Assembly: GCF_041886205.1 (NCBI RefSeq)
Contig: NZ_CP169029.1
Direction: 5' to 3' (one strand)
Length of the DNA stretch: 64,000 bases
DNA from: Escherichia coli
GTDB taxonomy: Bacteria > Pseudomonadota > Gammaproteobacteria > Enterobacterales > Enterobacteriaceae
A program made the position numbers and the translations under genes. The first letter of the stretch is position 1; the number at the start of each line of letters is the position of its first letter. Of the stretch, positions 17,576 through 28,884 are shown piece after piece. Below the pieces are notes generated by a model. The model had not been told where the DNA came from and ran no database searches. It saw only the letters and a program-made list of their open reading frames with translations.

Positions 17576-20500
17576 ATGATGGAAATTCTGCGTGGTTCGC
17601 CTGCACTGTCGGCATTCCGAATCAACAAACTGCTGGCACGTTTTCAGGCTGCCAGGCTCCCGGTTCACAATATTTACGCCGAGTATGTCCATTTTGCTGA
17701 CCTCAATGCGCCGTTAAACGATGATGAGCACGCACAACTTGAACGCCTGCTGAAATATGGCCCGGCACTCGCCAGCCACGCCCCGCAAGGCAAACTCCTG
17801 CTGGTGACCCCGCGTCCTGGCACCATCTCTCCCTGGTCTTCGAAAGCGACCGATATTGCCCATAACTGCGGGCTACAACAGGTAAACCGCCTTGAGCGCG
17901 GCGTTGCTTACTATATAGAAGCCGGTACGCTGACCAATGAACAATGGCAGCAGGTTACCGCTGAACTGCACGACCGCATGATGGAAACGGTCTTTTTTGC
18001 TTTAGATGATGCAGAGCAGTTGTTTGCCCACCATCAACCGACTCCGGTTACCAGCGTTGATTTGCTGGGGCAGGGCCGTCAGGCGCTGATCGACGCTAAC
18101 CTGCGTCTTGGCCTGGCTCTGGCGGAAGATGAAATTGACTATCTGCAGGATGCTTTCACAAAGCTTGGTCGTAACCCGAACGACATCGAGCTGTATATGT
18201 TCGCTCAGGCGAACTCTGAGCACTGCCGCCACAAAATTTTTAATGCCGACTGGATTATCGACGGTGAACAGCAGCCGAAATCGCTGTTCAAGATGATCAA
18301 AAATACTTTCGAAACCACGCCAGATCACGTTCTCTCTGCTTATAAAGATAACGCCGCCGTAATGGAAGGTTCTGAAGTGGGCCGCTACTTTGCTGACCAC
18401 GAAACGGGCCGCTACGATTTCCATCAGGAACCGGCGCATATTCTGATGAAAGTCGAAACTCACAACCACCCGACGGCGATTTCTCCGTGGCCGGGCGCGG
18501 CGACCGGTTCCGGCGGCGAAATTCGTGATGAAGGCGCCACCGGACGCGGTGCGAAACCGAAGGCTGGTCTGGTTGGTTTCTCCGTATCCAACCTGCGAAT
18601 TCCTGGCTTCGAACAGCCGTGGGAAGAAGATTTCGGTAAGCCTGAGCGCATTGTCACCGCGCTGGACATCATGACCGAAGGCCCGCTGGGCGGCGCGGCG
18701 TTTAACAACGAATTTGGTCGTCCGGCACTGAATGGCTACTTCCGTACTTATGAAGAAAAAGTGAACAGCCACAATGGCGAAGAGCTGCGCGGTTATCACA
18801 AACCGATCATGCTGGCGGGCGGGATCGGCAACATTCGCGCCGATCACGTACAAAAAGGCGAGATCAACGTCGGTGCGAAGCTGGTCGTTCTCGGCGGCCC
18901 GGCAATGAACATCGGTCTTGGCGGCGGAGCGGCGTCTTCCATGGCGTCAGGTCAGTCTGATGCCGACCTCGACTTTGCTTCCGTACAGCGCGACAACCCG
19001 GAGATGGAGCGTCGCTGCCAGGAAGTGATCGACCGTTGCTGGCAGCTTGGTGATGCCAACCCAATCCTGTTTATCCACGACGTCGGCGCTGGCGGTCTTT
19101 CTAACGCGATGCCGGAACTGGTGAGCGACGGCGGGCGCGGCGGTAAATTTGAACTGCGCGATATTCTAAGCGACGAACCGGGCATGAGCCCGCTGGAAAT
19201 CTGGTGTAACGAATCCCAGGAACGCTACGTGCTGGCGGTTGCTGCCGATCAATTACCGCTGTTTGACGAACTGTGTAAGCGTGAGCGCGCACCCTACGCG
19301 GTGATTGGTGAAGCGACCGAAGAACTGCATCTTTCTCTGCACGATCGTCATTTTGATAATCAGCCGATCGATCTGCCGCTGGACGTCCTGCTTGGTAAAA
19401 CGCCGAAGATGACCCGCGATGTACAAACGCTGAAAGCGAAGGGCGATGCGCTGGTCCGTGAAGGGATCACCATTGCAGACGCGGTGAAACGCGTACTGCA
19501 TCTGCCGACCGTGGCGGAGAAAACTTTCCTGGTGACCATCGGTGACCGCAGCGTAACCGGCATGGTGGCGCGCGATCAGATGGTGGGGCCGTGGCAGGTG
19601 CCGGTCGCTAACTGCGCGGTCACTACCGCCAGCCTCGACAGCTACTACGGTGAAGCGATGGCGATTGGCGAGCGTGCGCCGGTTGCGCTGCTGGATTTCG
19701 CCGCCTCTGCCCGTCTGGCGGTCGGTGAAGCGTTAACCAATATTGCCGCAACACAGATTGGCGATATCAAACGCATTAAACTTTCCGCCAACTGGATGGC
19801 GGCGGCAGGCCACCCTGGTGAAGATGCGGGCCTGTATGAAGCCGTTAAAGCCGTGGGCGAAGAGCTTTGTCCGGCGCTGGGCCTGACGATCCCGGTGGGT
19901 AAAGACTCTATGTCGATGAAAACCCGCTGGCAGGAAGGTAACGAAGAGCGCGAAATGACGTCGCCGCTGTCGCTGGTGATTTCTGCATTTGCCCGCGTGG
20001 AAGATGTACGTCACACCATCACGCCGCAGCTTTCTACCGAAGATAACGCACTGCTGCTGATTGATTTGGGCAAAGGCAATAACGCGCTGGGCGCAACGGC
20101 GCTGGCGCAGGTTTATCGTCAGCTTGGCGACAAACCGGCAGATGTACGCGATGTCGCGCAACTGAAAGGCTTCTATGACGCGATTCAGGCGCTGGTTGCA
20201 CAGCGTAAGCTGCTGGCGTATCACGACCGCTCTGATGGCGGCCTGCTGGTAACGCTGGCGGAAATGGCCTTTGCTGGTCATTGTGGCATTGACGCGGATA
20301 TCGCCACTCTGGGTGACGATCGCCTGGCGGCGTTGTTTAACGAAGAACTGGGTGCGGTGATTCAGGTTCGTGCCGCTGACCGTGAAGCGGTCGAGTCCGT
20401 ACTGGCACAGCATGGGCTTGCGGATTGCGTCCATTATGTTGGGCTGGCGGTTTCCGGTGACCGTTTTGTGATTACCGCCAACGGGCAGACTGTATTCAGC

Positions 20501-21463
20501 GAAAGCCGCACTACGTTGCGTGTCTGGTGGGCAGAAACTACCTGGCAGATGCAGCGCCTGCGTGACAACCCGGAGTGTGCCGATCAGGAGCATCAGGCGA
20601 AATCAAACGACGCCGATCCGGGCCTGAATGTAAAACTGTCGTTCGATATCAACGAAGATGTGGCAGCACCGTATATTGCCACTGGCGCACGTCCGAAAGT
20701 TGCCGTGCTGCGTGAGCAGGGTGTGAACTCACATGTTGAAATGGCGGCAGCCTTCCACCGTGCAGGCTTCGATGCAATCGATGTGCATATGAGCGACCTG
20801 CTGGCTGGACGCACGGGCCTGGAGGATTTTCACGCCCTGGTCGCGTGCGGAGGTTTCTCCTACGGTGACGTGCTGGGTGCCGGTGAAGGTTGGGCGAAGT
20901 CTATCCTGTTCAATGACCGTGTACGCGATGAGTTTGCAACCTTCTTCCATCGTCCGCAAACGCTGGCGCTGGGGGTATGTAACGGTTGCCAGATGATGTC
21001 TAATCTGCGTGAACTGATCCCAGGTAGTGAGTTGTGGCCACGTTTTGTGCGCAATACCTCCGATCGCTTTGAAGCGCGTTTCAGCCTGGTTGAAGTAACC
21101 CAAAGCCCGTCTCTGCTGTTGCAGGGGATGGTGGGCTCGCAAATGCCGATTGCTGTCTCTCACGGTGAAGGGCGCGTTGAAGTGCGTGATGCGGCGCATC
21201 TGGCGGCACTGGAAAGCAAAGGGCTGGTGGCACTGCGCTATGTCGATAACTTCGGCAAAGTCACTGAAACCTACCCGGCTAACCCGAACGGTTCACCGAA
21301 CGGTATTACGTCGGTTACGACTGAAAGTGGTCGAGTCACCATTATGATGCCGCACCCGGAACGTGTTTTCCGTACTGTCAGCAACTCCTGGCATCCGGAA
21401 AACTGGGGCGAGGATGGCCCATGGATGCGCATTTTCCGCAATGCGCGTAAGCAGTTGGGGTAA
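17576..21463 (+). CDS. purL: phosphoribosylformylglycinamidine synthase
   Basis: 1295-aa ORF with C-terminal glutamine amidotransferase domain (GVCNGCQ). Confidence 0.95.
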
Positions 21464-26111: not shown

Positions 26112-27302
26112 TCACAGCACCTTATGCGGGCCAAAGCATTCGTAATGAATGTTTTCCTGCTTCACGCCCAGATCCACTAACTGTTTCGCGGCAAACTGCA
26201 TGAAGCCAACCGGGCCGCAGAGATAGAACTGCATTGTCGGATCGCTGAACGCACCTTCCAGTTTGCTCAAATCCATCAGACCTTCGCTATCAAACTGACC
26301 TTTAGCGCGATCGGCTTCGCTCGGCTGACGATACCAGGTGTGCGCGGTAAAGCGCGGCAGTGACTGCCCCAGTTCCTTAACTTCATCGGCAAAGGCGTGA
26401 ACATCGCCATTTTCTGCCGCATGGAACCAGTTCACTTGTGCTGTGTGGCCTGCTTTTGCCAGCGTGTCGAGCATTGCCAGCATTGGCGTTTGACCAACAC
26501 CGGCAGAGATTAACGTCACTGGTGTGTCATCTGCGACAGCCATAAAGAAATCACCTGCCGGAGCGGCCAGTTTCACGACATCGCCAACATTGGCGTGATT
26601 GTGCAACCAGTTGGATACCTGCCCACCCTCTTCGCGTTTCACCGCAATACGATAGCCTTTGCCATCCGGTTTGCGAGTCAAAGAGTACTGACGAATTTCC
26701 TGATGCGGGAAACCTTCCGGCTTCAGCCAGACGCCGAGATATTGCCCCGGACGGTATTCTGCCACTGCACCACCGTCGACCGGCTCCAGTTCGAAGCTGG
26801 TGATAAGCGCGCTGCGCGGTGTTTTAGCCACAATGCGGAAATCGCGAGTACCTTCCCAACCACCGGCTTTGCTGGCGTTTTCGTTATAGATTTCCGCCTC
26901 GCGATTGATAAATACATTAGCCAGTACACCATAGGCTTTACCCCACGCGTCCAGCACTTCCTGCCCCGGGCTGAACATTTCGTCCAGCGTTGCCAACAGG
27001 TGTTCACCGACGATGTTGTACTGTTCCGGTTTGATCTGGAAACTGGTGTGCTTCTGCGCGATTTTTTCTACCGCTGGCAGCAGCGCAGGCAGGTTTTCAA
27101 TATTACTGGCGTAGGCGGCAATAGCGTTAAACAGGGCTTCACGTTGATCGCCATTACGCTGGTTACTCATGTTAAAAATTTCTTTGAGTTCTGGGTTATG
27201 AGTAAACATACGGTCGTAGAAATGGGCGGTTAACTTTGGCCCTGTTTCTACCAGTAAAGGGATGGTGGCTTTTACTGTAGCGATGGTTTGAGCGTCAAGC
27301 AT
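26112..27302 (-). CDS. hmp: flavohemoglobin (nitric oxide dioxygenase)
   Basis: 396-aa ORF, N-terminal globin and C-terminal FAD/NAD reductase domain. Confidence 0.95.
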
Positions 27303-27329
27303 ATGGTCTTCCTTTTTTTTGCATCTTAA

Positions 27330-27352
27330 TTGATGTATCTCAAATGCATCTT
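27330..27352 (-). promoter_or_regulatory. NsrR operator at hmp promoter
   Basis: Minus-strand aagatgcatttgagatacatcaa, an inverted repeat matching the NsrR consensus, just upstream of hmp start. Confidence 0.55.
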
Positions 27353-27630
27353 ATAAAAAATAGCCCTGCAATGTAAATGGTTCTTTGGTGTTTTTCAGAA
27401 AGAATGTGATGAAGTGAAAAATTTGCATCACAAACCTGAAAAGAAATCCGTTTCCGGTTGCAAGCTCTTTATTCTCCAAAGCCTTGCGTAGCCTGAAGGT
27501 AATCGTTTGCGTAAATTCCTTTGTCAAGACCTGTTATCGCACAATGATTCGGTTATACTGTTCGCCGTTGTCCAACAGGACCGCCTATAAAGGCCAAAAA
27601 TTTTATTGTTAGCTGAGTCAGGAGATGCGG

Positions 27631-28884
27631 ATGTTAAAGCGTGAAATGAACATTGCCGATTATGATGCCGAACTGTGGCAGGCTATAGAGCAGGAAAAAG
27701 TACGTCAGGAAGAGCACATCGAACTGATCGCCTCCGAAAACTACACCAGCCCGCGCGTAATGCAGGCGCAGGGTTCTCAGCTGACCAACAAATATGCTGA
27801 AGGTTATCCGGGCAAACGCTACTACGGCGGTTGCGAGTATGTTGATATCGTTGAACAACTGGCGATCGATCGTGCGAAAGAACTGTTCGGCGCTGACTAC
27901 GCTAACGTCCAGCCGCACTCCGGCTCCCAGGCTAACTTTGCGGTCTACACCGCGCTGCTGGAACCAGGTGATACCGTTCTGGGTATGAACCTGGCGCATG
28001 GCGGTCACCTGACTCACGGTTCTCCGGTTAACTTCTCCGGTAAACTGTACAACATCGTTCCTTACGGTATCGATGCTACCGGTCATATCGACTACGCCGA
28101 TCTGGAAAAACAAGCCAAAGAACACAAGCCGAAAATGATTATCGGTGGTTTCTCTGCATATTCCGGCGTGGTGGACTGGGCGAAAATGCGTGAAATCGCT
28201 GACAGCATCGGTGCTTACCTGTTCGTTGATATGGCGCACGTTGCGGGCCTGGTTGCTGCTGGCGTCTACCCGAACCCGGTTCCTCATGCTCACGTTGTTA
28301 CTACCACCACTCACAAAACCCTGGCGGGTCCGCGCGGCGGCCTGATCCTGGCGAAAGGTGGTAGCGAAGAGCTGTACAAAAAACTGAACTCTGCCGTTTT
28401 CCCTGGTGGTCAGGGCGGTCCGTTGATGCACGTAATCGCCGGTAAAGCGGTTGCTCTGAAAGAAGCGATGGAGCCTGAGTTCAAAACTTACCAGCAGCAG
28501 GTCGCGAAAAACGCTAAAGCGATGGTAGAAGTGTTCCTCGAGCGCGGCTACAAAGTGGTTTCCGGCGGCACTGATAACCACCTGTTCCTGGTTGATCTGG
28601 TTGATAAAAACCTGACCGGTAAAGAAGCAGACGCCGCTCTGGGCCGTGCTAACATCACCGTCAACAAAAACAGCGTACCGAACGATCCGAAGAGCCCGTT
28701 TGTGACCTCCGGTATTCGCGTGGGTACTCCGGCGATTACGCGTCGCGGCTTCAAAGAAGCAGAAGCGAAAGAACTGGCTGGCTGGATGTGTGACGTGCTG
28801 GACAGCATCAATGATGAAGCCGTTATCGAGCGCATCAAAGGTAAAGTTCTCGACATCTGCGCACGTTTCCCGGTTTACGCATAA
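27631..28884 (+). CDS. glyA: serine hydroxymethyltransferase
   Basis: Start refined to [12 protein letters not shown] (417 aa); PLP lysine motif [14 protein letters not shown]. Confidence 0.95.

Follow-up and report, generated by a model that had tools for sequence, protein, structure and literature searches.

What governs transcription in the spacer between the divergent genes hmp and glyA, and is the inverted repeat beside hmp an operator for the repressor NsrR, as a preliminary description of this DNA had claimed? Hmp is the main aerobic nitric oxide (NO)-detoxifying enzyme of enterobacteria, and NsrR is its principal NO-responsive switch. We addressed these questions in a 64,000-nt stretch of Escherichia coli DNA, which we refer to as the window.

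The spacer occupies positions 27303 to 27630 of the window, between hmp (26112 to 27302, minus strand) and glyA (start at 27631, plus strand). The hmp open reading frame (ORF) in the ORF list (26112 to 27302, minus strand) specifies a 396-amino-acid product, and the flanking ORF on the plus strand encodes serine hydroxymethyltransferase (glyA; coding region 27631 to 28884). Since the annotated glyA start lies at 27631, positions 27303 to 27630 are the exact intergenic region. A 528-nt query across the spacer found one match each in 5425 of 5426 complete E. coli genomes, and the annotation was always hmpA and glyA, which confirms the earlier assignment of this region to the hmp-glyA divergent spacer. 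In an alignment with K-12 MG1655, the sole difference within the spacer was one extra T in the T-run at 27313 to 27320; the closest spacer match (99.8%) was to strain LHM10-1. The flanking coding regions differ from K-12 by M19I and Y413F in GlyA and by V246A and T371A in Hmp, and the window is thus from a non-K-12 E. coli. The spacer was also correctly described as AT-rich, with a G+C content of 38.7% versus 52.5% for the window; only 0.56% of 328-nt windows are equally low. Two ORFs of 58 and 42 amino acids within the spacer were treated as spurious. Every element of the hmp-glyA region is already known, and each was described in the very DNA that is present here.

The elements on the hmp side of the spacer are as follows.

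27330 to 27352, minus strand: NsrR operator, an 11-1-11 imperfect inverted repeat (AAGATGCATTT-G-AGATACATCAA), assigned from the published site, the weight matrix, and conservation.
27330 to 27343, inside the half of the NsrR operator nearer hmp: FNR-like box TTGATGTATCTCAA, which agrees with TTGAT-N4-ATCAA at 9 of 10 positions.
27377 to 27372, minus strand: hmp -35 hexamer TTTACA, from the promoter scan and Shimada et al., 0.9 to 1.0 conserved.
27353 to 27348, minus strand: hmp -10 hexamer TAAGAT, from the promoter scan, 0.9 to 1.0 conserved.
27317 to 27327, minus strand: extra single NsrR-like half-site AAGATGCAAAA, beside the hmp Shine-Dalgarno sequence and the T-run.
27313 to 27320: run of 8 T in the hmp 5' leader, polymorphic in length (7 T in K-12 MG1655).
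27308 to 27312, minus strand: putative hmp Shine-Dalgarno sequence GGAAG, 5 nt before the ATG (CTTCC, 0.8 to 0.9 conserved).
27300 to 27302, minus strand: hmp start codon ATG, from the ORF list; the gene is annotated as hmp or hmpA in K-12 and other E. coli genomes.

The plus strand of the operator reads TTGATGTATCTCAAATGCATCTT, and its reverse complement, AAGATGCATTTGAGATACATCAA, is exactly the 23-bp sequence that had been placed on the minus strand at 27330 to 27352. A gap of 27 nt (27303 to 27329) separates the site from the hmp ATG, in agreement with the claim of a distance below 30 nt. Its description as abutting the hmp start was slightly loose: the site is near, but what it covers is the -10 hexamer and the putative transcription start rather than the start codon. 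The identical 23-mer is the hmp entry in Table 4 of the NsrR chromatin immunoprecipitation sequencing (ChIP-seq) study of strain CFT073 (PMC5320621), where it carries a ChIP-seq peak ("+"). The same study gives this site a PatSer ln(P) of -18.22, better than the cut-off of -14.28, and the hmp site thus exceeds the published threshold for the enterobacterial NsrR pattern AAGATGCATTT-N-AAATGCATCTT with its 11-1-11 layout.

For an assessment in which hmp itself played no part, we built a symmetrised NsrR weight matrix from that table without hmp, using its 25 remaining distinct sites. The segment from 27330 to 27352 scored 18.7 bits and ranked first in the 64 kb (the runner-up reached 12.9 bits), whereas about 0.06 matches per 64 kb are expected at 18.7 bits or more in first-order Markov sequence. 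The hmp operator has the matrix-preferred base at 16 of its 23 positions. Its stronger half-site, AAGATGCATTT (27352 to 27342), scores 15.7 bits, is unique in the window, and overlaps the hmp -10 hexamer. The proposed match to the NsrR operator was therefore upheld both by identity to a ChIP-bound published site and by the matrix score. The inverted repeat that had been reported is present but imperfect: 7 of the 11 arm pairs are self-complementary, and this palindromy is not above chance, as 607 such 11-1-11 repeats occur in the 64 kb and 6 of them within the spacer. A repeat search with a 6-nt seed did not report the operator's inverted repeat. We therefore ruled out palindromy as evidence, and the case rests on motif match and conservation. 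Collectively, these data support the identification of 27330 to 27352 as the published hmp NsrR site, a finding that is right but ordinary and contains nothing new.

To assess conservation, we scanned species-representative genomes with a DNA pattern anchored on a 10-residue Hmp N-terminal peptide, which yielded 95 loci. In 81 of these, which we used, glyA lies upstream of hmp in divergent orientation and the spacer measures 272 to 335 nt; a 15-residue Hmp N terminus is common to all 81. Most come from Enterobacteriaceae (Escherichia, Salmonella, Citrobacter, Klebsiella, Enterobacter, Kluyvera, Raoultella, and others), and the remainder include Pantoea, Erwinia, and Leminorella. Every one of the 82 spacers had a best NsrR-matrix match of 18.7 bits or more (median, 26.7 bits), and the distance from the orthologous sites to the hmp ATG was mostly 25 to 27 nt. 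The orthologue consensus, ATGATGTATTTTAAATGCATCTT, agrees with the base that the matrix prefers at 18 of 23 positions, and information content per position correlated with conservation (rho = 0.49, p = 0.018). Conservation of the NsrR site upstream of hmp orthologues agrees with Rodionov et al. 2005 (PMC1274295). Part of this conservation could come from the -10 hexamer and the start site instead of NsrR. The Escherichia operator is the weakest among the 82, at 18.7 bits versus the median of 26.7. In its hmp-proximal half, the orthologue consensus ATGATGTATTT has given way to TTGATGTATCT, and the FNR-like half-site TTGAT arises from this change.

The palindrome might instead be primarily an FNR operator of the TTGAT-N4-ATCAA type, mediating oxygen-responsive repression of hmp, with only a secondary resemblance to an NsrR site. 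Besides the 9 of 10 consensus positions matched by TTGATGTATCTCAA at 27330 to 27343, a sister lineage, Escherichia sp. MOD1-EC7003 (L073), has a perfect box, TTGATGTATATCAA, and both FNR binding and FNR control of hmp are documented in the literature. We nevertheless consider an FNR-first reading very improbable. Boxes with one mismatch number 5 in the window versus 2.4 expected, so that a consensus match by itself is no better than chance, and we rejected the FNR consensus scan as stand-alone evidence. Within the orthologue set, only Escherichia and Salmonella keep the FNR-like box, and Rodionov et al. (PMC1274295) likewise limit conservation of the FNR site to E. coli and Salmonella; the NsrR pattern, by comparison, is conserved in all 82 spacers. 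Furthermore, only 14 of the 23 bp fall within the box, and the half with the highest conservation and score, AAGATGCATTT (15.7 bits), lies mostly outside it; published NsrR ChIP-seq occupancy also argues against FNR as the primary regulator. The NsrR and FNR sites overlap and probably both function, and the FNR reading fails only as an exclusive one. A second alternative, that the inverted repeat arose by chance in an AT-rich core promoter and is conserved only through the -10 hexamer, start, and leader, is almost certainly wrong: the arm pairing is at chance level, there are six such repeats in the spacer, and the strong half overlaps a -10 hexamer that would be conserved in any case, but the hmp-less matrix gives a score rarely expected by chance (0.06 matches per 64 kb), conservation spans the half downstream of the start (27331 to 27340), the shift of the orthologue consensus is toward that of NsrR and not merely toward that of a promoter, and a published ChIP-seq peak on the identical sequence contradicts it.

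With 27330 to 27352 taken as the NsrR operator, its position relative to the hmp promoter can be considered. On the minus strand, the promoter scan returned TTTACA-18-TAAGAT. Shimada et al. give the hmp promoter as TTTACA-16-TATAAG, with the same -35 hexamer and TATAAG (27350 to 27355) as an alternative reading of the -10. Transcription of hmp would start near 27341. Poole et al. reportedly placed, in 1996, an FNR site at about -2 to +11, a position that would fit this start. The operator overlaps the -10 hexamer TAAGAT of this conserved promoter and would also cover the start, a geometry that fits repression by promoter occlusion. Upstream of the -35 hexamer, the block TGGTTCTTT (27378 to 27386) is at least 0.9 conserved; these nucleotides may resemble an UP element or belong to the -35 context. 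On the hmp strand, the overlapping segment AAGAACCATTT (27375 to 27386) agrees with the NsrR half-site at 9 of 11 positions (8.0 bits), a match that is not significant alone, given that 79 window positions reach at least this score.

The hmp leader contains two further features that vary among genomes. Of the 5426 complete E. coli genomes, 1423 contain an exact match to the 71-mer with 8 T, indicating that the longer T-run is a common natural allele. The extra half-site AAGATGCAAAA repeats the strong half-site 25 nt away, through a direct repeat of TGCATCTTA at 27320 to 27328 and 27345 to 27353. It is weak (7.7 bits, with 98 window positions scoring as high) and was found only in Escherichia among the collected loci; PMC5320621 already lists it as "hmp (19) AAGATGCAAAA". 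On the far side of the promoter, Enterobacter, Leclercia, Pluralibacter, and Superficieibacter lack about 25 to 38 nt of the unconserved spacer (27387 to 27412) that runs from the hmp -35 block to the first MetR box, and MetR is therefore much nearer the hmp promoter in those genera.

The preliminary description had expected the glyA promoter and its MetR and PurR sites in the remaining 270 bp or so of the spacer, without placing them confidently; consensus matches, conservation, and the literature allowed us to place them there. Between the two promoters and upstream of glyA, the elements are as follows.

27414 to 27428: MetR box 1, GTGAAAAATTTGCAT, hmp-proximal and the better match, with the core TGAA-N5-TGCA (1 mismatch).
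27436 to 27450: MetR box 2, CTGAAAAGAAATCCG, with 2 mismatches in the core, read from the sequence and nearly invariant in 81 orthologues.
27467 to 27486: conserved block CTTTATT..CAAAGCCTTG, between MetR box 2 and the PurR box, conservation 0.7 to 1.0 with variable flanks.
27497 to 27512: PurR box AGGTAATCGTTTGCGT, agreeing at 13 of 16 positions with the palindromic consensus ACGNAAACGTTTGCNT.

The consensus scan for MetR, a LysR-type regulator, matched TGAAAAATTTGCA (27415 to 27427), with 1 mismatch to the TGAA-N5-TTCA type; the core of box 2 is TGAAAAGAAATCC (27437 to 27449), and the centers of the two boxes lie 22 bp apart. Both boxes fall within a conserved island (27413 to 27451, conservation 0.8 to 1.0) with unconserved flanks. 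The MetR consensus alone performs at chance level, with 31 occurrences found versus 28 expected in the window, and the scan was ruled out as stand-alone evidence; the assignment therefore rests on conservation and on the literature, which reports two MetR sites in the hmp-glyA spacer. Consensus, spacing, and that literature together suggest that 27436 to 27450 is a MetR box. No binding factor was found for the block at 27467 to 27486.

The PurR consensus had only 2 matches in the 64 kb, the glyA box and the purL operator. The consensus used, ACGNAAACGTTTGCNT, is that of PMC3159470, and the glyA PurR site carries a "confirmed" rating in RegulonDB. The core of the glyA box, AA-CGTTTGCGT, is invariant in the 81 orthologues. 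The purL operator served as an in-window positive control for the scan. Its box, ACGCAAACGGTTTCGT (17484 to 17499), lies in the mltF-purL spacer and precedes the purL ORF (17576 to 21463, plus strand) by about 77 nt.

Nearest to glyA lie the promoter and leader elements.

27521 to 27526, plus strand: -35-like hexamer TTGTCA, at least 0.9 conserved, inside the conserved block 27519 to 27540.
27554 to 27559, plus strand: putative glyA -10 hexamer TATACT, 0.9 to 1.0 conserved in 81 orthologues.
27570 to 27581 and 27583 to 27594, plus strand: hairpins GUCC-AACA-GGAC and GCCU-AUAA-AGGC in the glyA leader, present in both the minimum free energy (MFE) and centroid folds.
27608 to 27633, plus strand: glyA translation-initiation region, with the Shine-Dalgarno sequence AGGAG at 27620 to 27624 and the start codon at 27631 to 27633 (K-12 annotation).

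TATACT is contained in a conserved block (27553 to 27562). Pantoea and Leminorella have TACACT in its place, which keeps A2 and T6. We infer that TATACT is the glyA -10 hexamer, with a start near 27564 to 27567. On the plus strand, the promoter scan returned TTGTCA-16-AATGAT; AATGAT is poorly conserved (0.3 to 0.9) compared with the invariant TATACT, and the latter was preferred as the -10. TTGTCA lies 27 bp upstream of TATACT, and any pairing of the two is uncertain.

In the glyA leader, 91% of cells at the hairpin at 27570 to 27581 are paired, and 12 of 37 sequences have C-G in place of a U-A pair. A strongly structured leader was rejected, its stability being no greater than that of shuffled sequences (z = 0.24). 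A scan of 27150 to 27800 against Rfam identified no known RNA family, the only hit being a meaningless sub-threshold miRNA match, and the literature searched yielded nothing relevant on post-transcriptional control of glyA in E. coli. Conservation across 27608 to 27633 is mostly 1.0 from Escherichia to Pantoea, and hardly any variation is seen in the 23 nt that precede the start codon. Immediately after AGGAG comes an in-frame ATG (27625 to 27627), which precedes the annotated glyA start by 6 nt and is kept in nearly all orthologues. This upstream in-frame ATG is the reason that the mechanically called glyA ORF begins at 27625; it is unlikely to be the start, since it is too near the Shine-Dalgarno sequence.

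Some of these observations invite a more speculative account, in which hmp was rewired in a lineage-specific manner (in its NsrR/FNR control or its translation) and glyA is under a post-transcriptional control that has not been described. The first could be based on the decay of the Escherichia hmp-proximal half-site into an FNR-like box, the gain of a third half-site at 27317 to 27327, and a run of 7 or 8 T that sets the spacing. The second could be based on the covarying hairpin near the 5' end of the leader and on the 23-nt near-invariant block, which could represent a small RNA or protein site or an mRNA stability element. Both suggestions are speculative, and we consider them unlikely.

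By contrast, we hold with high confidence that this region is the E. coli hmp-glyA divergent control region, working as the literature describes. Of the parts of this model, identity, matrix score, conservation, and motif positions were computed here; binding, NO sensing, and the direction of regulation are taken from the literature; and the starts and the occlusion are what we infer. In the proposed arrangement, hmp would be read leftward from a sigma-70 promoter (TTTACA, 27377 to 27372; TAAGAT, 27353 to 27348), and the operator at 27352 to 27330 would cover the -10 hexamer, the putative start near 27341, and roughly 12 nt at the beginning of the leader. Bound there as a dimer, NsrR, an Rrf2-family iron-sulfur repressor, would keep RNA polymerase off the hmp promoter. 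NO would nitrosylate the NsrR cluster, whereupon NsrR would leave and hmp, which encodes an NO dioxygenase, would be induced. These steps follow a literature, including PMC1274295 and PMC5320621, in which NsrR is an NO-sensitive iron-sulfur repressor of hmp. The FNR-like box at 27330 to 27343 would add anaerobic repression of hmp. The MetR boxes at 27414 to 27428 and 27436 to 27450, between the promoters, would activate glyA with homocysteine, and the hmp-proximal one may also feed into hmp upon homocysteine depletion. The PurR box at 27497 to 27512, upstream of the glyA promoter, would confer purine repression on glyA.

The operator, its overlap with FNR, and the control of glyA by MetR and PurR have been described for years in the same sequence, and the value of the present analysis lies in confirmation: a real regulatory site was recognized from sequence alone, and the remaining sites could be placed by phylogenetic footprinting. 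The hmp NsrR operator was also, reportedly, the subject of work by Bodenmiller and Spiro in 2006 and by Partridge et al. in 2009. Compared with the hmp operator of E. coli K-12 and CFT073 (PMC1274295; PMC5320621), the site studied here has the same 23 bp, position, and flanking promoter, and the same extra half-site, AAGATGCAAAA; relative to K-12, it differs only in having 8 T instead of 7 between the extra half-site and the hmp Shine-Dalgarno sequence. The NsrR operators of ytfE and hcp, the strongest 11-1-11 sites in E. coli, share its architecture and the half-site AAGATGCATTT. The hmp site is more degenerate, however, at 18.7 bits versus 31.8 for ytfE and 27.0 for hcp, and, in contrast to both, the half nearest hmp, TTGATGTATCT, is at the same time an FNR-like box.

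On the glyA side, MetR activation and PurR repression are said to have been established by Plamann and Stauffer (1989), Steiert et al. (1990, 1992), and Lorenz and Stauffer (1995, 1996). The K-12 glyA control region consists of the same DNA, with two boxes of the TGAA-N5-TTCA type and a 16-bp PurR box upstream of the promoter, and no difference was detected when the sites were placed by consensus and conservation. The purL PurR operator (17484 to 17499) belongs to the same 16-bp box family as the glyA box. The purL box is nearer the consensus (2 mismatches versus 3 for the glyA box). It adjoins its gene's core promoter, unlike the glyA box, which is located upstream of the glyA -35 region.
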